Shown here: in pieces, positions 8,596-57,435 of the stretch
How positions within the stretch are numbered: position 1 is the first letter of the stretch
How the letters are laid out: the number at the start of each line of letters is the position of its first letter
Assembly (NCBI GenBank): GCA_016214755.1
Contig: JACRNX010000030.1
Location: 1 to 62,686, forward strand
Direction of reading: 5' to 3'
DNA: 62,686 bases
Origin: Candidatus Falkowbacteria bacterium
Lineage (GTDB): Bacteria > Patescibacteriota > Patescibacteriia > UBA11705 > JABHMO01
Position numbers and translations under genes: made by a program
Notes under the pieces: model-generated
Databases searched by the model: none
Seen by the model: the letters and a program-made list of their open reading frames with translations, nothing else
Told to the model about the DNA's origin: nothing

Positions 8596-11466
8596 CTATC
8601 CCCCAGCCGTTGAGCCGAGGACTTTTAAGATGAAATTGATGATGATGAAACTGGTGAAGACGACAATTAAGCCGATGCCCGCCCAAACCATGGTGTCGCG
8701 GCCTTGTTTTATCATTTTGTCTTCGCCGCGCGAGATGAGCCAGAGCGTGCCGCCGTAGAGGAACATGGCGAGCGCGGCGCTGCCGATAAGTCCGATAATC
8801 CATGATATGACGCGGCCGATGACAACCGCGAAATCCGTCTCGCCGAGGAAATTCGGCAGTTCAATTGATTTAATCTCCGTGGCGCCGGCTTGCTCGGCTG
8901 TCGGCGCGGTGCATTTTCCGTTTTCGCATAATCCAGATTGACAGACATCGTTTTCTCCATCCGCGCAGGGTTCGTCTGCCCCGTATTTTGATTCGCATTT
9001 ATCAGTGTTTTGGCCAGAAGCATTATCAGTATTATCGCAAAAGAATCCCGAGCCGCACTCGTTGTTTTCCGCGCAACCGCAGATACTGCTCATACATATT
9101 CCAGAAAGACATTCTCCTTCTTCTTGCCCTCCCGCGTTTTTTAACGTACAGGTATCTCCTGATTTCTTTTTCAATTCACATTTGTTGTTTGTGTTGCAAA
9201 ATTCATGACTTGGACATTGAGAGGGAGAAACAGTGGGGTTGCAAGCTTTACCGCTGGCGACGCCTAATTTTTCGCAAAGATTAGTGGGGAGATCGCCTTG
9301 ATTATTACAGTATTCTCCAGAATTACAATGACTGTTTGCCGTGCAGCCACATTTTAATGCAGGAGACGGACAAGTTTGATATAAACATTCTGCAGGTGTT
9401 GTGCAGGACACGCCAGCTAGTTTTTTAACTTGGCATTCGTTAGGGTCTTTAGACGTGTCGCAGTAATGGGTAGCAGGACATCCGTCAGGAGATGGAGATG
9501 GATATTTTTTTGTATCACAAAGTATTGGTCCACCGGGTTTTGCCGCGCCGCCCGCGGCGGCCGGTTTCGGCGCGCACTTTGATGTTTTGGCATCGCAGTT
9601 TCCGCTTTTACATGTTTCAGGAAAAGCGATAGCACATAGTTCTCCGTTAGCTATTTTTTTTATACATTTGGTGGTCGTGGTATCGCAAAAATAATCTTGG
9701 CCACAATTTTTGTCCTCTTTGCAACCGATTACTGCTTCGGGTTTGATTTTACAATTATCGCAAGCGGCCTTTTCTGCGTCTGGAGTAGTTGTAGCTGGAT
9801 CGCATTCTTCTTCGTATTCAACTATTCCATTGCCGCACTTTGGGACATCTTTACATTTTTTTTCTACTGGATGGCAGAAGTTAGATTTACAATGGCCGCC
9901 GATTTCGCAATCGCCGCCGACATCTTTTTTATTTACACAAGTTCCGACACTGCAATATTGGTCAACCGTGCATTCGATTTTAAGAAATCCTTTGATTACT
10001 TCGCATTCTGACGGCGCCGCTTTTTCGCAAAGATGCGAGGCGGTGTTGCATTTTTTGCCCTCTGAACAATCTTTGTCAGCATAACAACCGCCGAGTGTTA
10101 TACATTGTCCAGTTGAACCGCATTGGCCTGACTCGCAGTCGCCGTCTTTTTGGCAAGGAGCGTCTTTTGATTTTACTGCTACGCATTTGAAAAACGCGCC
10201 GCTTTTATCGCAGAAATAATCAAGTTCACAATTAGCATCTTTGGTGCATTCGTGATCCTCGGGATTTACGTCTTTGCAGGTGCCGCTACCAGGGACAGTC
10301 TCTGTATCACAATATCCAGATAAGCATTCTTCATTGACCGCGCACCCAGAATTATTATTTTTTTTATCCTCGCAAATTTTATTTGTGGCCGCGGACTTGC
10401 AAAATTTGCCGTCTCCGCAGTCAGTATCCTTTTGACATTTATCGGTGTCCGCGCATTTGCCGCTGACGCATTTTCCAGAGAGGCACTGATTGGCAGTGTT
10501 CGCAGTGCAGGATTTGCCTGGCGCCTTTTTGCTAAGGCATTTCTTGGGCATCGAGCTAATGTCGCAATAATCCGTGGAAGAGCAATTTTCGTCTTTTTTG
10601 CATTGGTCTTCCACGATAATGCACTTTTGGTATAAACATTTTCCCGAAACGCATTCGTTATCTTTCGCGCATGTTTCCCAACTGTATTTTTTTTCTTTGC
10701 AAATTTTTGGGGTTTTGTCTGTTCGGCAATAAAAATCTGTTTCGCAGTCAGCGTCAGTTTTGCAATACGCCGGCTCTTGGCAAATGCCGAAATAGCAAAC
10801 TTCGGATAAGCATGCTTTATTACTTTTACACAAATTGTCTCCTTCTAACGATGGCTGGCAAGTCAGACCTGGGTCGCAGAAGTAGTTATTTGGACAGCCC
10901 CCATCTGAACCTATGCCGCCTGCTTTTGTGCACTTTTGAGCGCACTTGTATTCGTATTTTATACAGTCGCCGGATATACATTGAAATGAATTGAGGCAGT
11001 CGTGGCCAGTTTGATATTTTGAAACGCAAGTATTGGGCACGATCTCGGGCTTGCAAAATTGATTGGCGTCTTTGCAGAGATTTTGCAAACCGCACTGATT
11101 GGTCGGAATTCCAAGCGCGACGCCGGCCGGGCATTTTCCAAGCGTGCAGCCGCTTTGCTTTAAACATTGCGCTGACAGTTCTTTGTAACTATCTTGCGCG
11201 TAATTTTGTTTCGCCATTAGTTGTTCTAATTCTGAAAAACCAATGAATTCTGGATAATAATTGCTGATATTCTCCGGCGTAACTGGTCCGATATTGGCTA
11301 AGCATTGCGCCGGCGAAGAAACGCAACAGACATCAAACGGTTTGTCGAGGAGATCTTTAATAGTATAGTTATAATGGTTCGTTACTGCTTGGGCGCTACT
11401 GGCAAGCAAAGTAAAACTAATCGCGAAGAATATTATCGCGGAAAAGAGGATTTTTGTTTTTGGCAT
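8596..11466 (-). CDS. 956-aa secreted Cys-rich repeat protein with a C-terminal TrbC/VirB2-like two-helix membrane domain
   Basis: Signal peptide MPKTKILFSAIIFFAISFTLLASSAQA. About ten tandem modules of the type C-x-[KT]D-x-[DN]C-x4-5-[FY]C..K..C...EC.SG.C. The C-terminus is ..ISWIIGLIGSAALAMFLYGGTLWLISRGEDKMIKQGRDTMVWAGIGLIVVF.. Confidence 0.85.
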   Translation of the reverse strand: MPKTKILFSAIIFFAISFTLLASSAQAVTNHYNYTIKDLLDKPFDVCCVSSPAQCLANIGPVTPENISNYYPEFIGFSELEQLMAKQNYAQDSYKELSAQCLKQSGCTLGKCPAGVALGIPTNQCGLQNLCKDANQFCKPEIVPNTCVSKYQTGHDCLNSFQCISGDCIKYEYKCAQKCTKAGGIGSDGGCPNNYFCDPGLTCQPSLEGDNLCKSNKACLSEVCYFGICQEPAYCKTDADCETDFYCRTDKTPKICKEKKYSWETCAKDNECVSGKCLYQKCIIVEDQCKKDENCSSTDYCDISSMPKKCLSKKAPGKSCTANTANQCLSGKCVSGKCADTDKCQKDTDCGDGKFCKSAATNKICEDKKNNNSGCAVNEECLSGYCDTETVPGSGTCKDVNPEDHECTKDANCELDYFCDKSGAFFKCVAVKSKDAPCQKDGDCESGQCGSTGQCITLGGCYADKDCSEGKKCNTASHLCEKAAPSECEVIKGFLKIECTVDQYCSVGTCVNKKDVGGDCEIGGHCKSNFCHPVEKKCKDVPKCGNGIVEYEEECDPATTTPDAEKAACDNCKIKPEAVIGCKEDKNCGQDYFCDTTTTKCIKKIANGELCAIAFPETCKSGNCDAKTSKCAPKPAAAGGAAKPGGPILCDTKKYPSPSPDGCPATHYCDTSKDPNECQVKKLAGVSCTTPAECLYQTCPSPALKCGCTANSHCNSGEYCNNQGDLPTNLCEKLGVASGKACNPTVSPSQCPSHEFCNTNNKCELKKKSGDTCTLKNAGGQEEGECLSGICMSSICGCAENNECGSGFFCDNTDNASGQNTDKCESKYGADEPCADGENDVCQSGLCENGKCTAPTAEQAGATEIKSIELPNFLGETDFAVVIGRVISWIIGLIGSAALAMFLYGGTLWLISRGEDKMIKQGRDTMVWAGIGLIVVFTSFIIINFILKVLGSTAGG

Positions 11467-13303: not shown

Positions 13304-14944
13304 TCAAAGTCGAAATCTTCTTTCCACTTCCTGCTTGTTGAAATAGTCCTCGATGTGTTTTTTGGCGGCGTTGGTTTTGACGAATTTAAGCCATTCGTAA
13401 CTGGGGCCGTCTTTCGCGCGGTCGACGGTTATCTGGACGACGTCATTGGTCGCTAATTGATGGTCGAGAGACACCTGGATGTCATTGACAACCGCGCCGG
13501 CGCATTTATTGCCGATTTCCGAATGGATGTGATAAGCAAAATCAACCGGCGTGGCGCCCGAGGGCAAAGAGATAACGTCGCCTTTCGGGGTATAGACGTA
13601 AATGCGGCTGTTGAGTATCTCGGAAGAAAACTTCGCCCAAAATTCCTCGTCATTTTTATACTGTTGCTGTTTTAGCAACAATTCTTGAATCCAAGGCGGA
13701 ATTTTCTTCTTTAGATTTTTATAGTACCAATGGGCGGCAATGCCGTAATTCGCTTCTTCATTCATTGCTCTGGTTCTGATTTGGAATTCTGTCGCCCGGC
13801 CGTTCAGCCCAAAAACAGTGGTATGCAAACTTTGATAATGATTATTTTTGGGAGCGGCGATGTAATCTTTAAACCGGCGGTGCCTCGGCCGCCAGAGCCG
13901 GTGGATGATGCCAACTATCCGATAGCAATCATCCACTGAATTCACGATTACGCGCAAGGCGAAAACATCGCAGATATCGTCGAAACTTTTTTTCTTCGCT
14001 TTCATTTTAGTATAGATGCTGTAAAAGTGCTTAAAGCGGCCGTCGATTTGGCAGGCAATACCCGCGTCGGCAGCCGCTTTTTCTAAGATATTTTTTGTTT
14101 TTTGAATATATTTATCGCGATTTTTCTTTTCGTCAATATTGAATCGGCGCGAAATTTTTTCGTATTCTTCTGATTCGAGGATTTTGAATGAATAGTCCTC
14201 CAATTGCCAGCGCAGTTTCCAGATTCCGAGAAGATCGGCGAGGGGCGCGAGAATTTCTTTTGATTCAATGGCGCAGATTTTTAACGCGTCTTCCGAGGGC
14301 AGAGTGCGATTTTTCAAGCGGTCAATGTTGGAACACATTTTAATGATAATAACTCGGAGATCCGCCGCCATGGCGACAACCATTTCGCGCAAATGGGATA
14401 TGTATTGCTGGTTGTTCGGGGCTTTTATCCAAAGAAGTTTTTGAAAATGTTGCACCAGTTCGGCTATTTCTTTATTTGATATTTCCGCGATCTCTTCGAT
14501 AGTGACGTGACAATGATAGGGGAGTTCGTGCATAAGCGCGGTGCAGACAGCCGTCAAACCAATTCTGATACTCGCGACTTTCAACGCCGTGCGGTATGAG
14601 TGGTCGAATCGTCCTCTATCCTCGCGCAATTTTTGTTCAGCGTAGTTATAGCATTTCACGAGAACGCCGATTTCCGCCCCTAATTTATTTTCAATTTTCG
14701 CGTGCAAATTCTCATCTCGCTTTGCCAAATCAAAAAATAAACACGCGCAAACGCATTCCACTTGCGCCTTTTCTTCGGCGGCGATTATCGCGGCTTCAAC
14801 CGCTTGTTCATGCAGTATTTTTCTTTCGCTTGAATCGAAACGTTCAAGTTCATCATTGAGCAGCTGGTAAGCTTTTTCAATAATTTCAGCGGAAATCGTC
14901 GGTTGCTTTTCTTTAATTATTTCTATAATTTTGCCAATATCCAT
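13304..14944 (-). CDS. Second RelA/SpoT homologue with a degenerate HD domain
   Basis: Synthetase and TGS motifs are conserved (GRFKHFYSIYTK, DVFALRVIV, HYQSLHT, EFQIRT, VYTPKGDVISLPSGATPVDFAYHIH). The HD dyad position reads LMHELPYH and there is an extra N-terminal extension. Confidence 0.88.
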   Translation of the reverse strand: MDIGKIIEIIKEKQPTISAEIIEKAYQLLNDELERFDSSERKILHEQAVEAAIIAAEEKAQVECVCACLFFDLAKRDENLHAKIENKLGAEIGVLVKCYNYAEQKLREDRGRFDHSYRTALKVASIRIGLTAVCTALMHELPYHCHVTIEEIAEISNKEIAELVQHFQKLLWIKAPNNQQYISHLREMVVAMAADLRVIIIKMCSNIDRLKNRTLPSEDALKICAIESKEILAPLADLLGIWKLRWQLEDYSFKILESEEYEKISRRFNIDEKKNRDKYIQKTKNILEKAAADAGIACQIDGRFKHFYSIYTKMKAKKKSFDDICDVFALRVIVNSVDDCYRIVGIIHRLWRPRHRRFKDYIAAPKNNHYQSLHTTVFGLNGRATEFQIRTRAMNEEANYGIAAHWYYKNLKKKIPPWIQELLLKQQQYKNDEEFWAKFSSEILNSRIYVYTPKGDVISLPSGATPVDFAYHIHSEIGNKCAGAVVNDIQVSLDHQLATNDVVQITVDRAKDGPSYEWLKFVKTNAAKKHIEDYFNKQEVERRFRL

Positions 14945-17762: not shown

Positions 17763-17992
17763 AATAAAAATTAAAAAGTAAAAAGTAAAAATGAAAAATT
17801 ACAATTAAAAAGAAAAAATGGGAAATTCAGAATTTCTTTTTTATTTAGTTCGATTAACGATAATATGACAGAGCGATTAATAATTGTCAAATTTTGTCAA
17901 AAGATTCCTCCATTCCGCTCCGCTTCAGTCGGAATGACAAAAGTGTAAACAATGTTGAACTTTCTAATACTTGAATCTTAAATCTTGAATCT

Positions 17993-25134: not shown

Positions 25135-25163
25135 TTGAAGTTGTTCTAAAAGTGTGATATGAT
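25135..25163 (+). promoter_or_regulatory. Promoter TTGAAG-17 nt-TATGAT (TGn extended -10) for lepB
   Basis: -35 at 25135-25140 and -10 at 25158-25163, preceded by TGA. An 80-nt word hairpin (25168-25241) lies in the leader. Confidence 0.5.
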
Positions 25164-25247
25164 GTTTAAAAGTAAAAATGAAAAATGAAAAAGTAAAAAG
25201 TGAAGCGGTTTTTCCTTTTTCATTTTCAATTTTTACTTTTTAACCTT

Positions 25248-25847
25248 ATGCCCTTTGTCACCCGTTATTCAGAGCCAAAATTAACGCCCGCCCAAAAAGC
25301 CATTCATTTTGTTTGGGATTTGTTGAAAGTGGTCTGTGTTTCCCTAGCCATCATCATTCCCGTGCGCTATTTTTTGATTCAACCGTTTTACGTTAAAGGC
25401 GCGTCAATGGAGCCATCTTTTTTTGACCATGAATATTTGATTATTGATGAAATAGGTTACCGGTTCGGCGAGCCGAAACGCGGCGATATTGTTGTCTTTA
25501 AATATCCAAAAGACCCGTCGCTGTATTTTATTAAAAGAATCATCGGTTTGCCGGGAGAAACCGTGGAAATCGCTGACAGCAAGGTTTATATTCATCCAGC
25601 GGAGCCGGGCGCGCCTAAGTTTATTTTAGACGAGGAAAATTATTTGTCGTCGGAGGTTAATACTTTCGGAAATAAAACCTGGGTTCTCGGCGCGGACGAT
25701 TATTACGTGCTCGGCGATAATCGCGAGTCCAGTTTGGATTCGCGGACATTCGGCCCGGTTTTTCGCGAACTTATTGTCGGCAAGGTTTGGTTTCGCGGCT
25801 GGCCAGTCGCGCGGGTTGGGTTGTTTCCGTCGGTCAAATATGAATAA
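25248..25847 (+). CDS. lepB: Signal peptidase I
   Basis: S26 motifs: VKGASMEPSF (Ser), YFIKRIIGLPGE (Lys), VLGDNRESSLDSR. The start is at the ATG at 25248 because the upstream codons of the track ORF are the hairpin arm. Confidence 0.9.
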   Translation: MPFVTRYSEPKLTPAQKAIHFVWDLLKVVCVSLAIIIPVRYFLIQPFYVKGASMEPSFFDHEYLIIDEIGYRFGEPKRGDIVVFKYPKDPSLYFIKRIIGLPGETVEIADSKVYIHPAEPGAPKFILDEENYLSSEVNTFGNKTWVLGADDYYVLGDNRESSLDSRTFGPVFRELIVGKVWFRGWPVARVGLFPSVKYE

Positions 25848-25867
25848 GTTAAAAGTTAAAACTGAAA

Positions 25868-26245
25868 ATGGAAAACGAAAAGGAAAAATTTAAAACCGAA
25901 CTAAAGCGTCGAATTTATACATGGATTCTTCGCCTTATTAAATTTTTAGATAGTTCGCCAAAAGATACCATAACTTATCGGGTTGTCGATCAATTATTTA
26001 GAAGCGGCGGCAGTATTGGCGCGAATTATATTGAAGCTCAAGCATCAAGTTCCAAAAAGGATTTTGTTAATTTTCTACATCATTCTCTTAAGTCTGCAAA
26101 TGAATCAAAGTTTTGGTTGGCGATTCTTAGAGATACCAAACGCGGAGATGCGGAGAAAATTAATTTGCTTCTTGACGAACTTATTGAAATTGCCAATATT
26201 TTAGGCGCCAGTATCTTAACCGTTAAAGGCAAAAGAAAGTTTTAG
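25868..26245 (+). CDS. Four-helix-bundle protein (23S rRNA intervening-sequence protein / Avd-like family)
   Basis: ..RSGGSIGANYIEAQASSSKKDFVNFLHHSLKSANESKFWL.. matches the family signature (s-I-x-a-N-I-a-E...f..fl..a.gS..E). The size of 125 aa is typical. Confidence 0.85.
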   Translation: MENEKEKFKTELKRRIYTWILRLIKFLDSSPKDTITYRVVDQLFRSGGSIGANYIEAQASSSKKDFVNFLHHSLKSANESKFWLAILRDTKRGDAEKINLLLDELIEIANILGASILTVKGKRKF

Positions 26246-26290
26246 ATTGTCAATTTTCGTTTTTCATTTTTACTTTTTAATTTTATTTTT

Positions 26291-27619
26291 ATGCCAAGAC
26301 GAAAAAAAGAAGAAATTCCGCATGAAGAAATAAGAAAAATAAAAACGCCGGCGATCGTAGACGGCATGCGGGATGTTTTGCCCGCTGACCACAAATATTG
26401 GGAGTTCGTGGAACGGGAAATTCGCAAAGTGATTGACGGTTACAGTTTTTTACGGATCGCCACGCCGATTCTTGAAAAGTACGAGCTTTTCAATCACACG
26501 TTGTTTAAACAGAGCGGCGCTTTGGAAGGAGAGGTTTTTGATTTTATTGACCGCGGACAGAAATTAATCTTGCGGCCGGAGAACGCCGCTTCCATCGCCC
26601 GCGCTTTTATTTCGCATAACATGGCCAACCAGCCCATGCCGCTTAAGGTTTATTTTTGGGGTCCGATGTTTCGGCAAGCGCGCGGGGAAGCGAACAAGTG
26701 GCGGCAATTCACCCAGGCGGGGTTTGAGATTATCGGCGAAAAAGCGCCGGCCATAGACGCGGAGCTGATCATTATCGCCAGCAATATCATGAAAAATTTG
26801 GGATTAGAAACAGAAGTGCGGCTGAACAGCGTTGGTTGCGGCATCTGCCGGCTTGAATACAGCAAAGCGCTTTCCGGCTATCTGAAATCCAAGCGGGCGA
26901 TGCTGTGCCAGGACTGCCGGCGCCGGATTGGTCGCGACCCCCAGCATTTTCTGGCTTGCCAAAACAACCGTTGCGCGCGGCTCAAGGAAGACGCGCCGCA
27001 AACCGTTGATTGGCTGTGCGATGAATGCCGCAACCATTTGTTTCGCGTCCTCGAATATCTAGATGAATTAAAAATTCCTTATCAGCTTGATTCCACTTTA
27101 CTTTCCACTTTTGGTTTTTACTCGAAAACGATTTTTGAAATTAACGCTAATGGCGAACGGGGCGAAAAAATTTCTCTGGCCAGCGGCGGCCGCTTCGATA
27201 ATCTTTTGGAAATGCTAAGCGGCCCGGCCATGCCCGGCGCTGGTTTCGCCTTGGGGCTGGAGCGGGTGATTCAACAGCTTAAAACAGCGAAGGCGGAAGT
27301 GCCGAACCCAGCGGCGCCGGACGTGTTTTTGGCGCAAATCAGCGAACAGGCGCGGCAGAAGGCATTCGCTTTTTTCGAGGAACTGCGGCGTCACAATTTT
27401 TCCATTAAAGCGAATTTATCAAAAGCGAATTTGAAAGCGCAATTGGAAATCGCCGCCAAGTTGGGCGCGAAATATGTTTTGATTCTTGGCCAAAAGGAAG
27501 CAATGGAAGGCACGGTGATTTTGCGCGATATGGAGAGCGGGATTCAGGAGGTGGTCAATCGCACCAAGGTCGTCAAGGAAATTCAAAAGCGATTGAGAGA
27601 CAATTTGTTGAAATTGTAA
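26291..27619 (+). CDS. hisS: Histidine--tRNA ligase
   Basis: Class II motifs: LRPENAASIARAF, FRQARGEANKWRQFTQAGFEIIG, GGRFDNL, and a C-terminal anticodon-binding domain. Confidence 0.92.
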   Translation: MPRRKKEEIPHEEIRKIKTPAIVDGMRDVLPADHKYWEFVEREIRKVIDGYSFLRIATPILEKYELFNHTLFKQSGALEGEVFDFIDRGQKLILRPENAASIARAFISHNMANQPMPLKVYFWGPMFRQARGEANKWRQFTQAGFEIIGEKAPAIDAELIIIASNIMKNLGLETEVRLNSVGCGICRLEYSKALSGYLKSKRAMLCQDCRRRIGRDPQHFLACQNNRCARLKEDAPQTVDWLCDECRNHLFRVLEYLDELKIPYQLDSTLLSTFGFYSKTIFEINANGERGEKISLASGGRFDNLLEMLSGPAMPGAGFALGLERVIQQLKTAKAEVPNPAAPDVFLAQISEQARQKAFAFFEELRRHNFSIKANLSKANLKAQLEIAAKLGAKYVLILGQKEAMEGTVILRDMESGIQEVVNRTKVVKEIQKRLRDNLLKL

Positions 27620-27742
27620 TCAGCGATGGAAGACTTTTTGCCTGTCATGCTTCGAGAGCCTCAGCATGACATCAACTTGTCACCTTGAGGCGAGTTTGAA
27701 CGTGAACTGTTTCAAATCGTTTCGCATAAACCTCTCGAATGG

Positions 27743-28650: not shown

Positions 28651-30756
28651 ATGCTTGTCAACAAGATCCTGAATCGAGTTCAGGATGACAAATTTGGTTC
28701 GCCGGAAGAAAATTTAGCCGCGGTGGCGAAACAGGCGGGCTTGGAGAAAGAAGATCCGCGGATTATCGTCGCTCGATTCATCAAATGGTTTCTCGGTATT
28801 ATCGGCGCCATCGCGTTTATCATCGTCCTTTATGGCGGCTACACCTACATGACATCAGCCGGCGATCCGGAGAAAGTAAGGAAAGCAGAGGCAATATTGA
28901 AAAACGGCGTCATCGGGCTGATTATTATTTTCGCCGCTTATTCAATTACGGTTTTTGTGTTTAACATGTTATCGGTGAAAGAACCGTCTGGGACAGGATT
29001 GACGACCGCCGGCAGTGGACAGCTCGCCGGCAGTCCGTATGGATTGTCGAAAGGCGCGTTCGGCACGGTGATTCAAAGCCAGTATCCCCTGCCGGAGCAA
29101 ACCGGCGTGCCGCGCAATACCATGATTTTGGTGACTTTCAAAGCGCCGTTTGCCATTGATTCGCTGATTGACGTCAGTAAAAATGGCGATTGTCCAAAAG
29201 ATGACAAAGGCGCGTTGATAAAAAATTGCGGGGCAATTAAAACGGCCGCGTTCCGCGTTTATCAATGCGCGGATATGTTAAAAGAAAAATATTCTGATGA
29301 TAAAAACGCGACTTGCTTTAATAAAGAAATTTTTGATTTGGCGGATGAGAGCAAATTGGTTTCCGGTTATGGAATCGTAACCGAGGATTCTAAGACGATA
29401 ATTTTTAACCCATACGGCGACTCAAAAGAACAGCATTTGGGCAATGAGTTTGAAGATGTGCCATATATCGTCTATTTGACCGGCAAGATAATGCGGCAGG
29501 ATAATCCGGCGAAGTCCATTTTCACGACACAATATCCTGACCATAAGTGGCGGTTCACTACCAGCACGATTTTGGATTTGACGCCGCCTAAAGTCAGTTC
29601 AGTGGTGCCGGCTAATGTCGTTTACCCGATTAAGTGTCCGGGTGTTGGTTGCGCGGACGTTGATTCCAGCGGCAAGGTCTATTTGAATCAAATGGTTTAC
29701 ATTCATTTTAATGAACCAGTGATTCCGCCGCTCACGCAGACGCAGGATTGCACGATCGCTGATGATGACAATGAGGCGCAACTTGTTAACAACAAAAAAA
29801 TAGGCAGTTGTTTGACGATGCATGTCCCAGGTAAATGGAAAGTGGGAATTAATGGCTATCAAACAATCCAGTTCATTCCCACTACGCCGTGCGAAGGCGT
29901 TGAGAAAAATTCTTGCGGTAATCCGGTCTATTGTCTGCCGGCGAATTCGCAATTAATTGGTAAGGCCTTGGCGGCGAAAATTGTCGGCGGCGTTAGCATG
30001 CCCGGGACCGGTATTATGGATATGGCCGCCAATTCTTTGGATGGCAATGGCAACGGCAAGTCCGATGGGCCCGGCCCAATAGACGCTGACCCGAATAATA
30101 AAGACGCGATGCTCGATAGTTATTTTTGGGATTTTATAACTGGCGACAAATTGGATTTGATTGCGCCATGGGTGACCAGTTTGGAACCGAACAATAATAC
30201 CGCAGGCATTACGGACGTGAATCTTCCGTTATCCGCGATGTTCAGCGAATCAGTGGACGCCTATTCTGTTGACACGGAAATAAAATTAACTGGCTATAAC
30301 TCTGATGGAAAACAATTTGACGGCTGGTTTGACCCGAATCTTGGGAAAGAGGTTATTACGGAAAAAGTCGGCGACAAGGAGGTCTCGTCTGAAAAAGTTT
30401 TAGACAACAAAGCGGTGATTAGCCACGGCCCGTTTGAAGAATATATCGAAGGCCCTTCTCCATTGTACACGCCGGTTATTGGTTCAGAAGTAAAAGACAC
30501 GCGCCAGAATTGTTTCAGCCCGACCAAAGACGGCGCGGCGAAGGCGGAAGAAACAACTATTTTAAATAGCGAATGCGGGGTAAAAGATGCGGCAGGGGAG
30601 GTAAAAATACCTGGCGTCTCTTGTTGTCCGCAAGACGGAACTTATAAATTAATAGGGGACACAGGCGAAGAATGCACAACGCCTTGCCCGACAGGTTACA
30701 ACAAAGTAATAAAAGATAAAAAAGAAGAATGTATAATGCCGAAGGTTGTTAAGTAG
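28651..30756 (+). CDS. 701-aa surface protein: N-terminal TrbC/VirB2-like two-helix domain plus Ig-like (SbsA/Big_5-like) ectodomain and a Cys-rich tail
   Basis: ..IVARFIKWFLGIIGAIAFIIVLYGGYTYMTSAGDPEKVRKAEAILKNGVIGLIIIFAAYSI.. followed by beta-rich repeats (TPPKVSSVVPAN.., LIAPWVTSLEPNN..). The first 14 codons are a REP palindrome, so the start is uncertain (in-frame GTG at 28723). Confidence 0.8.
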   Translation: MLVNKILNRVQDDKFGSPEENLAAVAKQAGLEKEDPRIIVARFIKWFLGIIGAIAFIIVLYGGYTYMTSAGDPEKVRKAEAILKNGVIGLIIIFAAYSITVFVFNMLSVKEPSGTGLTTAGSGQLAGSPYGLSKGAFGTVIQSQYPLPEQTGVPRNTMILVTFKAPFAIDSLIDVSKNGDCPKDDKGALIKNCGAIKTAAFRVYQCADMLKEKYSDDKNATCFNKEIFDLADESKLVSGYGIVTEDSKTIIFNPYGDSKEQHLGNEFEDVPYIVYLTGKIMRQDNPAKSIFTTQYPDHKWRFTTSTILDLTPPKVSSVVPANVVYPIKCPGVGCADVDSSGKVYLNQMVYIHFNEPVIPPLTQTQDCTIADDDNEAQLVNNKKIGSCLTMHVPGKWKVGINGYQTIQFIPTTPCEGVEKNSCGNPVYCLPANSQLIGKALAAKIVGGVSMPGTGIMDMAANSLDGNGNGKSDGPGPIDADPNNKDAMLDSYFWDFITGDKLDLIAPWVTSLEPNNNTAGITDVNLPLSAMFSESVDAYSVDTEIKLTGYNSDGKQFDGWFDPNLGKEVITEKVGDKEVSSEKVLDNKAVISHGPFEEYIEGPSPLYTPVIGSEVKDTRQNCFSPTKDGAAKAEETTILNSECGVKDAAGEVKIPGVSCCPQDGTYKLIGDTGEECTTPCPTGYNKVIKDKKEECIMPKVVK

Positions 30757-42701: not shown

Positions 42702-42860
42702 ATTCCATCCTTCGAGGCTCGTCCCGCCTTCAGCGAGACTCGCACCTCAGGATGACAAACTACAATTCCCTAAGCCACTCTATAAATTGTTTGGAGTTTG
42801 AACATTGGAAAATTGGAGTTTGTTTAGAATTTCGATATTCGAATTTTGAATTTAAACTTT

Positions 42861-46020: not shown

Positions 46021-46237
46021 TTTTACAAATTCGAAATCCGAAATCCTAATTTCTAAACAAATCCGAAATCAGAAATTCGAAATCTTAAACAAATTTGAAA
46101 ATTACAATTTTCCAAATTACTTTTTTATGTTTAGAATTTAAAACATTGGAAAATTAGAGCTTGTTTAGAATTTAGAAATTCGGACTTATAATTTTCAAAT
46201 AGGAGGCGGGTTATCCGTCTCTTTTGTTAAATAGCGT

Positions 46238-47260: not shown

Positions 47261-49327
47261 ATGGTTTACGCGGCAAATAAAATCATCCAAATTCACAAGC
47301 GCGACGGCAGTATCGTTGAATTTGACCAAGCGAAAATTTCCAGCGCCATTTTCAAAGCCATGCGCGCCTGCGGCGAGCCGGACGCGGAGAAAGCCGAGCA
47401 GTTGTCGGACGTTATTGTCGAAAAACTGAACAAAAAATTCCATCAGCGGTCCATTCCGGCAGTAGAGGAAATCCAGGACATTGTCGAGGAGGTTTTGATT
47501 GAAAGCCGGCTGATTAAAGTCGCCAAATCGTATATCATCTATCGCGACCAGCACGCTAAGATGCGCGACATTCAATCCATGATCAATTCCGACGAATTGA
47601 TGGATAACTATCTGAAGCAATTGGACTGGAAGGTTAAAGAAAACAGCAACATGGATTATTCATTGCAGGGGCTGAATAACTACGTGGCGTCGAATTTGAG
47701 CACGAATTATTGGTTGAACAAGATTTATTCGCCGGATATCAAACAGGCGCATCTTTCCGGCGATTTTCATCTGCATGATTTACAGCTCTTGGCGCCGTAT
47801 TGCTGCGGCTGGGATTTCAAGGATTTGTTGTTGCGCGGATTTGGGGGAGTGCGCGGCAAAGTCGAGAGCAAGCCGCCGAAACATTTGATGACCGCTTTAA
47901 GTCAGTTAGTTAATTTTTTCTATACTTTGCAGGGCGAAGCGGCCGGCGCGCAGGCCGTGTCGAATTTGGATACTTATCTCGCGCCGTTCATTCGCGCCGA
48001 CGAGCTGGATTTCAAAGGGGTAAAACAGCAGGTTCAGATGTTTCTGTTCAACATGAACGTGCCGACGCGGGTGGGGTTTCAATCGCCTTTTACCAATGTT
48101 ACTTTGGACTTGTTTCCGCCGGCCGACGTGGCGGAGGAGGCGGCGATCGTGGGCGGCGAGCCGCAGGCGGAAAAGTACGGCGATTTTCAGAAAGAAATGG
48201 ACATGTTCAACCAAGCGTTCATTGAAATAATGATGGAAGGCGACCGCAAAGGCCGAGTGCTGAGTTGGCCGATTCCGACGTACAATATCGCGAAAAATTG
48301 GGATTGGGATTCAGCGATAATCAGTCGGATTATGGAAATGACCGCCAAATACGGCATTCCGTATTTTTCCAATTTCGTGAACAGCGACATGCGGCCGGAA
48401 GACGCGCGCAGCATGTGCTGCCGCCTGCGGCTCGACAACCGCGAATTGCGCAAGCGCGGCGGCGGTTTGTTCGGCGCCAATCCATTGACTGGCTCAATTG
48501 GTGTAGTGACCATTAATATGGCCCGGCTGGGGTATTTGGCGAAAACAAAAGAAGAATTTTTTGAACGATTGGCCGGACTGATGGATTTAGCCAAAACCAG
48601 TTTGAAGATTAAGCGCAACGCCCTGGAGAAATTCACTGACGGCGGATTGTATCCGTATTCACGGCACTATTTAAGCGGAATAAAAGAACGTTTCGACGAA
48701 TATTGGAAAAATCATTTTAACACCATTGGTTTGAACGGCGTTAATGAGGCCTGCTTGAATCTGCTTGGCGTTGAACACAGCATCGCTTCAGTTGAAGGCC
48801 GTAAATTCGCCGGTCAGGTTTTGGATTTTATGCGCGAGCGCATGATGGATTATCAAAATGAAACGAACGAGCTGTTTAATCTGGAAGCAACGCCGGCCGA
48901 AGGGACGTCTTACCGTTTCGCCCGGCTTGATAAGGAAAAATTTTCCGATATAATCGTCGCCAACGAGCAGGCCTGGCAAGAAAAAAAAGCGGCGCCGTAT
49001 TACACCAATTCAACGCATTTGCCGGTCGGTTACACGGATGATATTTTCGAGGCATTGCGCTTACAAGATGATTTACAGACGAAGTACACTGGCGGCACCG
49101 TCTTGCATGGTTTTATCGGGGAAAAACTGCCGTCAGCGGACAGCACGAAATTGCTGGTGAAAAAAATCGCGGAAAATTTTCATTTGCCGTATTTCACCAT
49201 CACGCCGACTTTCAGCGTCTGCCCGATTCACGGCTATCTCGAAGGCGAGCACGAGTATTGCCCTTTCTGCGATGAAGAAATGGGCTACGCGGAAGAAGCG
49301 GCGAAATTGGAAAAATTAGGTAATTAA
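47261..49327 (+). CDS. nrdD: Anaerobic ribonucleoside-triphosphate reductase, large N-terminal piece (lacks the glycyl-radical loop)
   Basis: ATP-cone (IHKRDGSIVEFDQAKISSAIFKA) and a class III RNR core. It ends after the zinc ribbon CPIHG..x..CPFC, and no RVxGY motif occurs before the stop. Confidence 0.9.
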   Translation: MVYAANKIIQIHKRDGSIVEFDQAKISSAIFKAMRACGEPDAEKAEQLSDVIVEKLNKKFHQRSIPAVEEIQDIVEEVLIESRLIKVAKSYIIYRDQHAKMRDIQSMINSDELMDNYLKQLDWKVKENSNMDYSLQGLNNYVASNLSTNYWLNKIYSPDIKQAHLSGDFHLHDLQLLAPYCCGWDFKDLLLRGFGGVRGKVESKPPKHLMTALSQLVNFFYTLQGEAAGAQAVSNLDTYLAPFIRADELDFKGVKQQVQMFLFNMNVPTRVGFQSPFTNVTLDLFPPADVAEEAAIVGGEPQAEKYGDFQKEMDMFNQAFIEIMMEGDRKGRVLSWPIPTYNIAKNWDWDSAIISRIMEMTAKYGIPYFSNFVNSDMRPEDARSMCCRLRLDNRELRKRGGGLFGANPLTGSIGVVTINMARLGYLAKTKEEFFERLAGLMDLAKTSLKIKRNALEKFTDGGLYPYSRHYLSGIKERFDEYWKNHFNTIGLNGVNEACLNLLGVEHSIASVEGRKFAGQVLDFMRERMMDYQNETNELFNLEATPAEGTSYRFARLDKEKFSDIIVANEQAWQEKKAAPYYTNSTHLPVGYTDDIFEALRLQDDLQTKYTGGTVLHGFIGEKLPSADSTKLLVKKIAENFHLPYFTITPTFSVCPIHGYLEGEHEYCPFCDEEMGYAEEAAKLEKLGN

Positions 49328-49534
49328 GAAATTAAGAAAACAAGAAATTAAGAAATTAAGTAATTGGTAATTTGGAAATTAAAAATTAAAAATGAAAAAC
49401 GAAAAGGATAAAGGAAAAACCGATATTTTAGGCGCGAGTGTTTTAACTGTTAATGACAAAAAGAGCGTTTTAAGTTTTTAATTTCCCTTTTTACTTTTTC
49501 ATTTTCAACTTTTAATTTAAAGGAACAACATCTT
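49328..49534 (+). repeat. 207-nt intervening cassette in nrdD: internally deleted four-helix-bundle gene (mini-ORF 49392..49481) between inverted word arms
   Basis: The mini-ORF MKNEKDKGKTDILGASVLTVNDKKSVLSF matches the N- and C-termini of 25868..26245 (MENEKEKFKT / NILGASILTVKGKRKF). The arms AATTAAAAATTAAAAATGAAAAACGAAAAGG and CCCTTTTTACTTTTTCATTTTCAACTTTTAATT are inverted. Confidence 0.75.
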
Positions 49535-49681
49535 ATGACCTTGCAAAAAATCGAGCGGCAAAAATGTGAAATCTATTCGCGCGTGGTCGGCTACTTAAGC
49601 CCGATCCATCGTTGGAATGACGGCAAAAAAGCGGAATTTGGCGATCGAAAAACGTATGATAAGATGCTTAGTAAGAATTAA
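49535..49681 (+). CDS. nrdD: NrdD C-terminal glycyl-radical fragment (48 aa, separate ORF)
   Basis: MTLQKIERQKCEIYSRVVGYLSPIHRWNDGKKAEFGDRKTY.. carries the class III RNR glycyl-radical signature R-V-x-G-Y...W-N-x-G-K..E. AAGGA lies 10 nt upstream. Same frame as 47261..49327. Absent from the ORF track (<60 aa). Confidence 0.75.
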   Translation: MTLQKIERQKCEIYSRVVGYLSPIHRWNDGKKAEFGDRKTYDKMLSKN

Positions 49682-53867: not shown

Positions 53868-54950
53868 ATGCGTTGGTTTGTCGGAGTGATTATCGCAGTT
53901 GTCATCGCCGGAGCCGTGGCGGCGGCGAGTTATTTTATTTTTCACGAAGAAGTTGATTTTATCGTTGATAAAACATTGAAAACCGCTGGTTTGATTCCAT
54001 TCGGCGATTGGGCGCGCGGTCAGGAAAAGGAAGCGGAAATATTGAACGCCAAGGAAGCGCTGGAGTCGCGGATCAGCTTGCTGGCGGTCGGCGACATAAT
54101 GCTCTCGCGCGTCGTTGGCCAGAAAATGGTTGCGTACAAGGATTATCATTTTCCGTTTTTGAAAGTCCAGGATTTGATTGGCCAGGCGGACATCAGCTTC
54201 GGTAATTTGGAAAGCCCGATTATAAAAGGAGCGCCGGTTAAAACCGGCTCGTTCAATTTTCGCGCCGACCCGGAAGCGGCCGAGAGTTTGTCTTTCGCCG
54301 GCTTCGATGTGTTAAGTTTGGCGAACAATCATATTTTAAATCAAGGACAGGATGGACTGCAAAAAACGTTTTATTATCTAAAAGAACAAAAAATTGATTA
54401 TTGCGGCGCGGTGAACAATTCCGGCAAACTTCAATTCGATACGCTTCTGCCGACGATTAGAGAGGTCAAAGGCGCAAAGATTGGCTTTCTGTGTTACGGT
54501 TATGGTCCGGAAAATTACGCGGCCAAGCAAAAAAGCGCGGGCATTATCCTTATGGACGAAGAACAACTTGCTCGCGACATTCAAAATGCAAAAGAACAAA
54601 ATTTAGTTGATTTTCTGGTTGTCTCAATGCACGATGGCGTTGAATATCAAAAAGAGCCGTCTGCGCGTCAAAAATCGTTTGCCCATCGAGCGATTGATCT
54701 CGGCGCTGACCTTGTCGTCGGCCATCACGCGCATGTCGTTCAGGAAATCGAACAATATAAAGGCAAATACATTTTTTACGGTTTAGGCAATTTTGTTTTT
54801 GACCAGATGTGGTCCGAAGAAACGAGAAAGGGATTGGCGGTGAAGTTTATTATTAAAAAGGAATCGGCCGGCGTGTTTAAAGTTGAAACAGTTGAACAAT
54901 ATCCTGTCATAATCGAGGATTATGGCCAGCCAAGTTTAGTCAGAAAGTAG
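53868..54950 (+). CDS. CapA/PGA-capsule-synthesis-like metallophosphatase family protein
   Basis: TM anchor, then LLAVGDIMLSR, GNLESP, LSLANNH, VSMHDG, VGHHAHV. Confidence 0.85.
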   Translation: MRWFVGVIIAVVIAGAVAAASYFIFHEEVDFIVDKTLKTAGLIPFGDWARGQEKEAEILNAKEALESRISLLAVGDIMLSRVVGQKMVAYKDYHFPFLKVQDLIGQADISFGNLESPIIKGAPVKTGSFNFRADPEAAESLSFAGFDVLSLANNHILNQGQDGLQKTFYYLKEQKIDYCGAVNNSGKLQFDTLLPTIREVKGAKIGFLCYGYGPENYAAKQKSAGIILMDEEQLARDIQNAKEQNLVDFLVVSMHDGVEYQKEPSARQKSFAHRAIDLGADLVVGHHAHVVQEIEQYKGKYIFYGLGNFVFDQMWSEETRKGLAVKFIIKKESAGVFKVETVEQYPVIIEDYGQPSLVRK

Positions 54951-54981
54951 AAAATAGAAAGTAGAAAATAGAATTAATGAA

Positions 54982-55332
54982 ATGGGTACAAAATCATTTA
55001 AAGAATTAATTGTTTGGCAAAAGTCGCGAGATTTAGCAATTGCTGTTTATCAATTTACAGAAAAATTTCCACGTTCAGAATTATATGGATTGTCAAGTCA
55101 GATGAGACGAGCCGCTGTTTCAATTTCCTCGAATATCGCGGAAAGTTATCGCCGTTTTCATTTTAAAGAGAAAAGACATTTATTGACAATTGCTTTTGGT
55201 TCTGGTTCGGAGTTAGAAAGTCAAATTGAGATTTCGAAAATATTGTTCTCAAATATAGATTACGATCGCGCGGAGCGAACTTTAGACGAGGTAATGAAAC
55301 TCCTCAATAATTTTTTGAATAATAATAAATAA
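54982..55332 (+). CDS. Four-helix-bundle protein (23S rRNA intervening-sequence protein / Avd-like family)
   Basis: ..LIVWQKSRDLAIAVYQFTEKFP..QMRRAAVSISSNIAESYRRF..GSGSELESQIEISK.. is a canonical signature of the family. Confidence 0.88.
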   Translation: MGTKSFKELIVWQKSRDLAIAVYQFTEKFPRSELYGLSSQMRRAAVSISSNIAESYRRFHFKEKRHLLTIAFGSGSELESQIEISKILFSNIDYDRAERTLDEVMKLLNNFLNNNK

Positions 55333-55380
55333 AATTCTACATTCTACATTCTACATTCTATTTTCTATTTTCTAAATTCT

Positions 55381-56322
55381 ATGTTTATTAAACCAAAAGT
55401 ATTAGTCACCGGCGGCGCCGGGTTCATCGGCTCGCACCAAGTAGACGCGCTCATTGACGCCGATTATCGAGTGGCGGTGGTTGACAATTTGTCAACCGGC
55501 GATCGAAATAATTTGAATCCGCAGGCAGAATTTTACGAATTAGACATCCGTGAAAGCAAGCTGGCGGAAGTTTTTGAAAAAGAAAAGCCGGACTTTGTTT
55601 TTCATTTCGCAGGGCAAATCAGCGTCAATCAGTCGGTGGAAGACCCGGTTTACGACGCGGACGTCAACATCATCGGTTCGTTGAATCTGCTGGAGCAATG
55701 CGTGAAATATAAAGTCAAAAAAATTATTTTTTCTTCCACCGGCGGCGCGCTTTACGGTGAAGCGGACGTCGTGCCGACGGCAGAGGACTATCCCTGCCAG
55801 CCGATTTCACCGTATGGCATCGCTAAATTGTCGGTGGAAAACTATTTGCGATTTTATTTTGAACAATTCGGTTTGGCCTGCGGCATAATGCGCTACGCCA
55901 ATGTCTATGGCCCGCGCCAGAACTCAAAGGGCGAAGCCGGCGTGATCGCGATTTTCACGGAAAAAATGCTCAATCGTTTAACGCCAATCATCCACGGCGA
56001 CGGCCATCAAACGCGCGATTATGTTTTTGTCGAAGACGTCGTCAGCGCCAACATGGCGATGCTGGAAAGCGAGGCCGTGGATTTTTACAATGTTGGCACT
56101 AGCCGGCAGACGACGGTGAACGAGGTTTTTAATTTCATCAAAAAGGAATTAGCGTCGGACGCCGAGCCGCGCTATGACCCTAACGCGTTTGCCGGCCAGG
56201 CGGTCAGCTGTTTGAGTTTTGAAAAAATTCAGCGCGCGCTCGGCTGGCGGCCGCTCTTTGATGTTGAGGAAGGAATCAAGAAGACGGTGGAGTGGTTTAG
56301 GGATAAAGAAAATAGAAAATAG
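55381..56322 (+). CDS. NAD-dependent sugar epimerase/dehydratase (UDP-glucose 4-epimerase-like)
   Basis: VLVTGGAGFIGSH Rossmann motif and the catalytic SPYGIAKL (YxxxK). Confidence 0.88.
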   Translation: MFIKPKVLVTGGAGFIGSHQVDALIDADYRVAVVDNLSTGDRNNLNPQAEFYELDIRESKLAEVFEKEKPDFVFHFAGQISVNQSVEDPVYDADVNIIGSLNLLEQCVKYKVKKIIFSSTGGALYGEADVVPTAEDYPCQPISPYGIAKLSVENYLRFYFEQFGLACGIMRYANVYGPRQNSKGEAGVIAIFTEKMLNRLTPIIHGDGHQTRDYVFVEDVVSANMAMLESEAVDFYNVGTSRQTTVNEVFNFIKKELASDAEPRYDPNAFAGQAVSCLSFEKIQRALGWRPLFDVEEGIKKTVEWFRDKENRK

Positions 56323-56478
56323 AAAGTAGAAAGTAGAAAGGATAGGGTGAAAATTAATGGAGACATGGAATTACAGATAGGATGTGGCGTCAGATTTCGT
56401 GCGTTTAGTTTTCCCCTTTAGACTTGCCCTGAGTAAAATCGAAGGGATAAGGGGGAAAAAGGGGGTTATTCAAGGGTT

Positions 56479-57435
56479 ATGAAACGTGGAAGCAATAATT
56501 TTTTGCCAAAGGATAATTTTCGGCCACGCAAACGGTTGGGGCAGAATTTTTTGATTGATAAAAATATTTTGCGAAAAATTATGGCCGCCGCTCGTTTATC
56601 AGCCGCGGACAACGTGCTTGAAGTCGGCCCGGGAAAAGGCATTCTGACCGAAGAGCTCGTCAAAAAAGCGAAGCGGGTCGTGGCGGTGGAAAAAGATAAA
56701 AGATTGGCAGAAGAAATTCTAAACAAATCACAAATTCCAAATTACGAATTACGTCCTTCGAGGCTCGCCCCGCCAGAAGCGGGGCTCGCACCTCAGGATG
56801 ACAAGTGCGTTTTCTCTGTCACCCTGAGCCCATTCGACGGAGTTTATCCTGAGCGAAGTCGAAGGGCTCAGGGTAAACTCTGTCGAAGGGACGATTTACG
56901 AATTATCTGCGCCGACATCTTGAAGATTACGGCGGACGATTTGCGGGAATGGTTTAACGCTGAACCGTATAAAATCGTCGCCAATTTGCCGTACAATATC
57001 ACCAGCCGATTTCTACGGCAGTTTTTGGAAAGCGACTATCAGCCGAAAGAAATGATTTTAATGGTCCAAAAAGAAGTGGCTGAGCGCGTCGTCCAAAAGC
57101 CCGGGCAGATGAGCTTGTTGTCCGTGTCAGTGCAATTTTTTTGCGAACCGGAAATTTTGTTTTTTGTCTCAAAAAATTGTTTTCAGCCGGCGCCGAAAGT
57201 TGACAGCGCCGTCATTCGATTGAACAATATCCGGCGCGATAAGTTCGCGATTCCAGCGGATATTTTTTTCGCGGTGGTGAAAAAAGGGTTCAGCGCCAAG
57301 CGCAAGCAGTTGAAAAACAATCTTGGAGTGACCGCGACGGCATTAAGTCAGCTGGGGCTTAAGCCAACAGTCAGGCCGCAGGAGCTTTCAATGGGCGATT
57401 GGATTAAATTGGCGGAAAGAGGTGGTAGATTGTAG
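56479..57435 (+). CDS. rsmA: 16S rRNA (adenine1518/1519-N6)-dimethyltransferase RsmA/KsgA (with an in-frame repeat insertion)
   Basis: KRLGQNFL, VLEVGPGKGILTE, VAVEKD, ANLPYNITS. An extra block of about 60 aa lies between the SAM-binding strand and the ..IICADIL.. strand. Confidence 0.88.
   Translation: MKRGSNNFLPKDNFRPRKRLGQNFLIDKNILRKIMAAARLSAADNVLEVGPGKGILTEELVKKAKRVVAVEKDKRLAEEILNKSQIPNYELRPSRLAPPEAGLAPQDDKCVFSVTLSPFDGVYPERSRRAQGKLCRRDDLRIICADILKITADDLREWFNAEPYKIVANLPYNITSRFLRQFLESDYQPKEMILMVQKEVAERVVQKPGQMSLLSVSVQFFCEPEILFFVSKNCFQPAPKVDSAVIRLNNIRRDKFAIPADIFFAVVKKGFSAKRKQLKNNLGVTATALSQLGLKPTVRPQELSMGDWIKLAERGGRL
56728..56906 (+). repeat. About 180-nt composite REP-like insertion, in frame, inside rsmA
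   Basis: Contains a family-A unit (56755-56804, also at 42709-42758 and 58712-58761 rc) and a GTCACCCTGAGCC..GGCTCAGGGTAAAC palindrome. It is bounded by TTACGAATTA words on both sides. Confidence 0.75.

Follow-up and report, generated by a model that had tools for sequence, protein, structure and literature searches.

A proposed intervening-sequence-like gene cassette with heptamer-word arms between lepB and hisS of a Patescibacteria genome

A four-helix-bundle gene in the lepB–hisS spacer

Contig JACRNX010000030.1 of Candidatus Falkowbacteria bacterium (assembly GCA_016214755.1), analysed over its positions 1 to 62,686 and referred to below as the window, is a 62.7-kb chromosomal stretch of a Patescibacteria (candidate phyla radiation, CPR) genome with 45% GC. 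At 25848..26290, between lepB and hisS, it carries a gene for a four-helix-bundle (4HB) protein, hb1, enclosed by two inverted and imperfectly complementary arms; gene and arms together are termed cassette 1. An earlier note on this DNA had described the gene as an exact fit to the spacer, and this was borne out. The open reading frame (ORF) of lepB (signal peptidase I; 25200..25847) ends at 25847, the hb1 ORF (125 aa) occupies 25868..26245 and the ATG of hisS (26291..27619) follows at 26291, all on the forward strand. The HisS N-terminus, MPRRKKEE, is kept in relatives, and cassette 1 therefore stops at the native hisS start codon.

The 5′ arm (25850..25896, forward strand) begins 3 nt past the lepB stop codon and includes the 4HB start codon and the first ∼10 codons. 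It is A-rich and has a period of 7 nt, reading as the words TTAAAAG TTAAAAC TGAAAAT GGAAAAC GAAAAGG and so on. In the T-rich 3′ arm (26239..26285, forward strand) lies TTTTTCATTTTT, which is complementary to the region of the start codon; 5 nt separate this arm from the hisS ATG. Over these 47 nt the arms are 79% complementary, and the minimum free energy (MFE) fold of 25836-26300 pairs them (z = −3.8; none of 100 dinucleotide shuffles was as stable), in agreement with the earlier description of a gene lying in the loop of a long stem. The predicted stem includes continuous helices of 19 bp, which are compatible with an RNase III substrate but do not evidence cleavage. For an identical cassette at another locus (L001), the flank-to-flank duplex had an energy of −49.9 kcal/mol, compared with −20.2 ± 2.4 kcal/mol for composition-preserving shuffles. 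A scan for promoter and terminator consensus sequences returned nothing specific to the cassette.

A second cassette of the same design, which the earlier note had also proposed, was confirmed at 54942..55380. Its 5′ arm (54942..54974) consists of the words AGAAAGT AGAAAAT AGAAAGT AGAAAAT AGAATTA, and its 3′ arm (55341..55380) of three copies of ATTCTAC followed by ATTCTAT, TTTCTAT and further units; between them lies the gene hb2 (54982..55332, 116 aa), again all on the forward strand. The upstream PGA_cap gene (53868..54950) has its stop codon inside the 5′ arm, and the 3′ arm reaches the ATG of a GalE-like epimerase gene (55381..56322). The arms 54942-54974 and 55341-55373 are 88% complementary over 33 nt and are paired in the fold, with a duplex energy of −44.2 against −21.9 ± 2.7 for shuffles. 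The word types differ between the two cassettes, being AGAAAGT/AGAAAAT in cassette 2 and AAAAGTT/GAAAACG in cassette 1.

Both proteins are members of the PF05635/TIGR02436 four-helix-bundle family, the family of the protein encoded by 23S rRNA intervening sequences (IVSs). The hb1 protein scored 65.6 bits with PF05635 (Pfam cut-off 33.8) and 78.2 bits with TIGR02436, ‘four helix bundle protein’ (cut-off 24); hb2, also matched by both profiles, scored 105 bits with TIGR02436. An AlphaFold model of the hb1 monomer has a pLDDT of 93.9 and helices at residues 2-28, 34-59, 63-89 and 95-119. The sequence matches PDB entry 2rld (E = 5e-13), and a Foldseek search with the model returned 2rld (BT_0352, TMt 0.86) and 2gsc (Xcc0516, TMt 0.85) at the top. 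Both of these entries hold five chains; the Avd entries 4dwl and 8ub7 came next. The motif RxxxSxxxNxxE, part of the GxxRxxxSxxxNxxE motif (PMC3936711), is present in hb1 as R45, S49, N53 and E56, which are invariant across 33 homologues, and in hb2 as RAAVSISSNIAE; the leading G is missing from both. By phmmer there was no detectable similarity between hb2 and hb1.

Some 1,760 relatives of the hb1 protein were detected, many of them 65–85% identical and from other Patescibacteria. No hb1-type gene was found among 2.9 million viral contigs. The NCBIfam model DivGenRetAVD gave 20.7 bits for hb2 (cut-off 80) and no match for hb1, and the sole Avd match in PHROG was a weak one to hb2 (E = 8e-7), hb1 being without a match. 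A phage vector for hb1-type genes was rejected on the viral-contig and PHROG results. The PADLOC defence scan gave no match.

Association of 4HB genes with inverted word arms

A metagenome scan added 80 loci with proteins of 31–82% identity; together with the looked-up hb1 homologues, this allowed 78 non-redundant PF05635 contexts to be scored, and 215 neighbouring genes from the same loci served as controls. Arms were called strong where the duplex between the 5′ and 3′ flanks was >10 kcal/mol better than that of composition-matched shuffles. Strong arms were found in 64% of the 4HB contexts and in 4% of the controls (Mann–Whitney p = 9e-23), and several of the positive controls, lepB for example, adjoin a cassette. 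A lag of 7 gave the best autocorrelation in 65% of 4HB 5′ flanks against 25% of control flanks, and in 85% against 32% of 3′ flanks. In 42 of the 50 strong cases the A-rich arm preceded the gene and the T-rich arm followed it. Both neighbours were co-directional with the 4HB gene in 53 of 64 contexts (83%). With median gaps of 45 nt on the upstream side and 75 nt on the downstream side, the arms essentially fill these short spacers. No rRNA motif was found in any of the 78 contexts, and an Rfam scan of the window returned tRNA only and no rRNA.

The arm words differ between subfamilies (AAATCCG/AAATCCT, AGAAAGT, AAAAGTT, TCAGGAG and GGGAAAA) and are always tandem units of ∼7 nt. A plasmid-borne 4HB gene of Nostoc punctiforme has inverted heptamer flanks of TCAGGAG ×5 and CTCCTGA..., and one on a Geminocystis plasmid has inverted flanks of GGGAAAA words; in the copies of Nostoc PCC 7120 and Calothrix the arm design is weak. 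AT-rich word arms surround 4HB genes even on GC-rich contigs (L119 and L112).

These data make it highly improbable that the complementarity is a product of chance or composition, with an A-rich gene start facing a T-rich spacer around an ordinary, vertically inherited 4HB gene. Such an account can point to the low complexity of the arms, to complementarity of only 79–88%, and to a deleted cassette, described below, that as a whole folds no more stably than its shuffled versions (z = −0.17). It has to accommodate the far weaker duplexes of composition-preserving shuffles at cassettes 1 and 2, the 64% against 4% in genes and controls from the same loci, the AT-rich arms on GC-rich contigs, and a lepB/hisS site that lacks the 4HB gene in 30 of 30 relatives.

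Homologues of hb1 with 72–85% identity were found at three unrelated sites: between an MJ0043_C-like gene and a VTT-domain gene, between DUF8128 and a TraG/DUF87 ATPase gene, and between DnaB and RecR genes. In all three the 4HB gene has the orientation of its neighbours, begins ∼20 nt past the upstream stop codon and lies 52–65 nt before the downstream start. The arms are common to these contexts (5′ ...TTAAAAAnTAAAAnnTAAAAATG; 3′ TTTTCGTTTTTACTTTTTCATTTTT...TTTTAAnTT), and the conserved ends of hb1-type cassettes can be written as AAnTTAAAA...TTTTAAnTT. Paired changes are present in the arms of hb1 homologues, for example CGAAAAG/TTTTCG as against CGACAAG/TTGTCG. The comparison supports the view that gene and arms behave as a single module, with the arm sequence co-travelling into unrelated contexts. 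The flanking sequences compared and the window have no gene in common, so that 85% identity to a ‘Portnoybacteria’ protein does not by itself establish transfer; the window's NrdD is likewise 83–89% identical to proteins of relatives.

A pair of metagenomic loci with an identical 4HB protein, L009 (nt 572) and L002 (nt 2979), was also noted. From precisely the point where the cassette begins on its 5′ side the two agree at 99.6%, and their sequences before that point are unrelated. The cause is either a rearrangement with its breakpoint there or a mis-join in the metagenome assembly where a word array is repeated.

The occupancy of the lepB–hisS site was compared in 30 related Patescibacteria genomes in which both genes were found. 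Empty sites, whose existence in relatives had been put forward as a check on the proposal, are the rule: a 4HB gene is present in none of the 30, and in 24 the two genes overlap or are ≤39 nt apart. The spacer is ∼63 nt in one genome and 108–590 nt in five. Judged from these genomes, presence of the cassette is sporadic, as it is for IVSs. For reference, the top HisS match among 185,579 species representatives was 66%, to Parcubacteria/Kuenenbacteria-type metagenome-assembled genomes (MAGs).

Three of the longer spacers belong to the four closest relatives, and each is ORF-less: that of L029 (4900-5011) holds a CACGAAT/ATTCGTG word hairpin, that of L030 (5893-6000) a hairpin of GAACATG words (GAACAT/ATGTTCC), and that of L032 (5411-6000) 590 nt of word arrays. 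In the fourth close relative (L031) the spacer is empty, at 21 nt. Because the hairpins in these relatives are made of different words, the spacer must have been occupied by palindromic word elements either repeatedly, or continuously with fast turnover of the words; the present genome differs in having an occupant with a gene. ORF-less heptamer-word hairpins were likewise seen in the lepB–hisS spacers of L052 and L053, and words other than CACGAAT and GAACATG occur among these relatives.

The 4HB start codon is paired in 32 of the 50 strong-arm cases, and the word arrays are typically ∼5 words long, a regularity of which much may be shared ancestry rather than independent observations. The arms might then be a cis-regulatory device of a resident gene, with a pentameric protein binding about five words, or the stem hiding the start codon, in autoregulation of translation or stabilization of the mRNA. 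The conservation of TTTTTCATTTT, the complement of the start-codon region, in hb1-type 3′ arms is consistent with this, as are the five chains in each of 2rld and 2gsc (see also PMC3936711, in the passage citing Lin et al.) and the stability of cassette positions across many samples. Regulation alone leaves unexplained the empty orthologous sites, the unrelated contexts of close homologues and the ORF-less copies, and it is compatible with a cassette rather than exclusive of one. We consider it quite unlikely as the whole explanation.

Deleted copies and ORF-less word elements in the window

The earlier note had placed a deleted copy of the cassette inside nrdD. An internally deleted hb1-type cassette with both arms is indeed present at 49328..49534 (forward strand), but it sits in the spacer between two nrdD ORFs. 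It has a residual in-frame ORF of 28 codons (MKNEKDKGKTDILGASVLTVNDKKSVLSF). Of a cassette-1-type ORF, ∼10 codons at the beginning and ∼17 at the end are left, and over its 3′-terminal 86 nt the copy has 71% identity to cassette 1. The arms 49376-49420 and 49474-49518 are 80% complementary over 45 nt; the overall fold is the one no better than shuffles.

The upstream nrdD ORF (47261..49327, 688 aa, forward strand) stops right after the CPxC zinc-ribbon motif, ending after CPFCDEEMGY..., and the 48-aa downstream ORF (49535..49681, forward strand) encodes the C-terminal part with the glycyl-radical motif (RVVGYL) and is separate in relatives too. Both parts are contiguous in Thermotoga maritima NrdD, and there is one intact 717-aa relative (P0237). 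Nearly all of the ∼120 closest NrdD homologues (67–89% identity), from MAGs named Falkowbacteria, Kuenenbacteria and Uhrbacteria, end at the same place with a conserved ...CDEEMGY tail. In four relatives, a 46–48-aa NRDD ORF follows after 56–135 nt of very different filler, often word hairpins. A fresh insertion of the deleted copy into nrdD was ruled out, since relatives share the two-ORF arrangement with other spacer fillers. To judge from these homologues the split of nrdD is ancient and older than the deleted copy, and as it is conserved in relatives the copy occupies an ordinary operon spacer. The anaerobic ribonucleotide reductase may be a two-piece enzyme with a separately encoded radical domain.

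Arms of the hb1 type occur at five sites in the window. An ORF-less hairpin of hb1-type words at 25159..25249 (AAAAGTAAAAATGAAAAA / TTTTTCATTTT...TTTTTAACCTT; forward strand) is 91 nt long, with 41-nt arms of 85% complementarity and a 9-nt loop, and folds with −29.5 kcal/mol (z = −7.1). It abuts the likely ATG of lepB: as the listed GTG start at 25200 falls in the loop of this upstream hairpin, translation probably begins at the ATG near 25251. The first ∼17 ‘codons’ of the listed lepB ORF are the T-rich arm translated, and such miscalled start codons are likely where word arms precede genes in genomes of this kind. A solitary array of hb1-type words (AAAAATTAAAAAGTAAAAAGTAAAAATGAAAAATT) at 17765..17830 adjoins topA. 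Other elements carry the words of a second 4HB subfamily (AAATCC/AAATTC type), namely an ORF-less element in the ybeY/dgkA spacer (42790..42853), which is 80% identical to 46131-46194, and an ORF-less hairpin of AAATCCG/AAATTCG words after ftsZ (46022..46199; 39-nt arms, 79%). All four of these elements are matched by the arms of foreign cassettes, the one at 25159..25249 by hb1-type arms. Downstream of the epimerase gene, 56307..56360 (forward strand) holds a third copy of the cassette-2 words, AGAAAGT × ∼5 followed by AATTAATGGAG and including the start-like AATTAATGG; this is probably what decay has left of an hb2-type cassette, namely its 5′ arm and its start.

The window thereby presents a decay series that runs from the intact cassettes through the in-frame deleted copy at 49328-49534 to the arm-only hairpins and arrays at the five places just described, which clearly derive from cassettes or are related to them. 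It contains ∼60 period-7 arrays, almost all intergenic, as well as a multi-copy family of ORF-less hairpins with a loop of its own (49706-49761 and 53803-53858, 93% identical).

Several further repeats were observed. A 121-nt element in two copies of 98% identity (42089-42209 and 50561-50681) has word arms GGTAGTGAGTAG / CTACTCACTACAACC around a conserved, non-coding loop of ∼90 nt and is a candidate small RNA or non-autonomous element. The 233-nt word-array spacer between two adjacent RelA/SpoT-family paralogues (11622-13070 and 13304-14944; HD_4, RelA_SpoT and TGS domains) forms a 51-nt inverted pair. A second hairpin family, which is GC-rich (TGTCATGCTTCGAGAGCCTCAGCATGACA / GTCATCCTGAGG...CTCGAAGG) and unrelated to the heptamer words, has copies in spacers at 27650-27700, 43215-43290, 58578-58684, 42701-42758 and 56747-56804. 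The ksgA/rsmA ORF (56479..57435) has an in-frame insertion of ∼55 aa at 56700-56880 (LNKSQIPNYELRPSRLAPPEAGLAPQDDKCVFSVTLSPFDGVYPERSRRAQGKL...), consisting of a word array (56713-56753) and then a GC-rich hairpin 86% identical to 42701-42758; palindromic repeats have thus also entered coding sequence with the frame kept. A short repeat, GAGG.AGA...CCCCCTCTGT.TCTCCCCCTTGGTAAGGGGGAGAG, lies just 5′ of two genes (39972-40025 and 44756-44809, 87% identical).

The window genes also include parA/parB, the two relA/spoT paralogues, topA, dprA, pth, der, a LytR-family gene, lepB and hisS, as well as rpsU, ybeY, dgkA, ftsA, ftsZ, nrdD, nrdG, htrA, a release factor gene and ksgA. T4SS-pilin-like (type IV secretion system) domains are present in two window proteins (ORFs 8596..11466 and 28651..30756), and a single ORF at 31019-39928 encodes 2,969 aa.

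Interpretation and comparison with known systems

We propose, with a probability of roughly 0.6, that 25848..26290 is a promoterless IVS-type palindromic gene cassette, carried along in host operons and degenerating into hairpins. Such a cassette would lodge between co-directional host genes, or at their very ends, and would be transcribed with the host operon. In the operon transcript the arms would pair into a long stem. At its base the stop codon of the gene before the cassette and the start codon of the gene after it would come to lie together, and in hb1-type cassettes the stem would also bury the start of the 4HB ORF. It is speculation that the flush fit preserves translational coupling. 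By analogy with rRNA IVSs, RNase III might cut the stem and release the cassette RNA, leaving the host messages intact on either side. Over time the ORF would be lost by internal deletion, giving ORF-less word hairpins in operon spacers. The earlier note had suggested an IVS-like module, mobile or processed by RNase III, that spreads outside rRNA; the module and its spread outside rRNA are supported, whereas the arms are not exclusive to it and nrdD was not split by the deleted copy.

Several observations weigh against this proposal. Strong arms are missing in 36% of family members. Many heptamer arrays, inverted pairs and hairpins lie at gene boundaries without a 4HB gene, so the arms need not be owned by the gene and could instead serve as a general vehicle or belong to the host. 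Equal occurrence of arms at unrelated boundaries had been named beforehand as a sign that the association is chance; the arms proved non-exclusive, but 4HB genes show a strong and specific excess of the enclosing arrangement, and the arm sequence moves together with the gene. A search of the large window spacers and the 590-nt L032 spacer for protein-level 4HB remnants gave nothing better than E = 1, and most ORF-less hairpins cannot therefore be called dead cassettes. Many samples have one and the same protein in an unchanged context, so that any mobility must be slow. In 59 arm alignments, sense-strand G:U mismatch columns (149) did not significantly exceed A:C columns (124; p = 0.15), and RNAalifold on 22 hb1-type cassettes gave no column-consistent terminal stem because the low-complexity words slip in register. 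There was also no evident target-site duplication at the junctions, and no transposase, integrase or reverse transcriptase among the scanned genes of the window.

The lack of a clear G:U excess is also compatible with a possible, if unlikely, alternative in which the arms act at the level of DNA. The cassettes and the ORF-less hairpins would then be palindromes like repetitive extragenic palindromic (REP) sequences or miniature inverted-repeat transposable elements (MITEs), moved as single-stranded DNA hairpins or via terminal inverted repeats by an enzyme encoded elsewhere, such as a REP-associated tyrosine transposase (RAYT) or IS200-IS605-type transposase. RNA processing would be irrelevant and the 4HB gene cargo. 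Terminal inverted repeats with the conserved ends AAnTTAAAA...TTTTAAnTT, the multi-copy ORF-less families with 93%, 98% and 80% identical copies in the window, and the homology breakpoint exactly at the cassette edge in L009 and L002 all agree with this. The lack of a mobilising enzyme among the scanned window genes and of target-site duplications counts against it too, however, as does the linkage of arm sequence to particular 4HB subfamilies. The fixed A-rich-5′/T-rich-3′ polarity and co-orientation with host transcription would not be expected for a symmetric DNA element.

Under the proposed operon-riding cassette, the part played by the 4HB protein can be considered. Binding of the words by the protein, as nucleic acid, is a reasonable first hypothesis, because its relatives are five-chain (pentameric) bundles and Avd acts on structured RNA with a reverse transcriptase. 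A bolder version, which we regard as quite unlikely, dedicates the pentamer to the heptamer words, each subunit taking one of the about five words of an arm; the cassettes would be the autonomous members of a widespread class of elements and the protein would promote copying into new sites. Its ligand would be RNA of the excised stem or of the words, or else hairpin DNA, and copying might proceed via a recruited reverse transcriptase, as for the homologue Avd. The non-autonomous derivatives would be the ORF-less hairpins and arrays of Patescibacteria, Cyanobacteria (short tandemly repeated repetitive sequences, STRR), Bacteroidetes and Beggiatoaceae, together with short rRNA IVSs. Were this true, heptamer repeats and IVS proteins, a decades-old puzzle, would be explained by one mechanism.

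PF05635 is a large family of wide distribution whose function has lacked an explanation for >30 years since its discovery in rRNA IVSs, and the same holds for intergenic heptamer repeats. If gene and word arms form a selfish cassette, rRNA IVSs would be a special case of a general type of operon-dwelling element, and an origin would be supplied for many intergenic hairpins of candidate-phyla genomes. The heptamer words would become a concrete candidate RNA or DNA ligand for an Avd-like protein. PF05635 genes located between cas genes have been interpreted as functional partners (PMC3936711); 4HB genes ‘associated’ with cas or other operons would then probably be insertions instead. For annotation, the gain is that start codons of neighbours miscalled inside arms, such as that of lepB, can be recognized. 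Full-text literature searches returned no paper that connects PF05635 genes with heptamer arms or with cassettes at sites other than rRNA, though curators' notes or paywalled papers may hold one.

Among known systems, integron cassettes are likewise promoterless, co-directional and tightly packed single-gene units with a structured palindrome resembling a recombination site. The present cassettes are not members of that class: the palindrome brackets the ORF instead of forming a 3′ attC, no integrase was found, and they occur singly among housekeeping genes rather than in arrays. Avd of diversity-generating retroelements shares the four-helix-bundle fold (TM 0.73-0.74 to 4dwl/8ub7), and the title of 8ub7 describes Avd bound to structured RNA with reverse transcriptase. 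The genes here are not Avd accessory genes, as their neighbours are lepB/hisS and PGA_cap/GalE-like genes, with no reverse transcriptase or template/variable repeats adjoining the window genes.

REP sequences, bacterial interspersed mosaic elements (BIMEs) and MITEs resemble the elements described here in being short, imperfect, multi-copy palindromes in operon spacers, in that ORF-less copies outnumber ORF-bearing ones and in co-transcription with neighbouring genes, which for the cassettes is presumed. They differ in that the arms here are polar word arrays, the ORF encodes a small helical protein rather than a recombinase, and no cognate transposase was found in the window. Another related group is formed by the intergenic heptamer repeats, comprising the cyanobacterial STRR and the TAACTGA repeats of Beggiatoaceae, Cyanobacteria and Bacteroidetes (PMC4679880). 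The arms of the cassettes are tandem heptamer words and, like these repeats, the arrays are tandem 7-nt intergenic units, near-exclusively intergenic, often just 5′ of start codons and of many word families per genome. Unlike them, the arrays here form hairpins or inverted pairs that enclose one gene family; the TAACTGA paper makes no mention of PF05635 or S23 proteins (PMC4679880).

The cassettes have the architecture of the ORF-bearing 23S rRNA IVSs of Leptospira and Coxiella burnetii, with a PF05635 ORF in the loop of a terminal stem (PMC4990558); the earlier note had already likened the geometry to that of rRNA IVSs. The Coxiella IVS is 428 nt long, with a 28-bp terminal stem that RNase III cuts at its middle and an S23p (PF05635) ORF in the loop (PMC4990558). 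The two kinds of element have in common a ∼120-aa PF05635 ORF in the loop, long-stem terminal inverted repeats, a length of ∼430–450 nt, a sporadic distribution implying horizontal spread and the absence of a recombinase inside the element (PMC4990558). 23S_rRNA_IVP ORFs are also present in rRNA insertions of CPR bacteria (PMC11270868). RNase III cleavage has been demonstrated for rRNA IVSs and is proposed by analogy for the cassettes, whose host site is a spacer between protein-coding genes instead of an rRNA helix. With the same architecture and cargo in a location outside rRNA, the cassette is best called IVS-like rather than an IVS.

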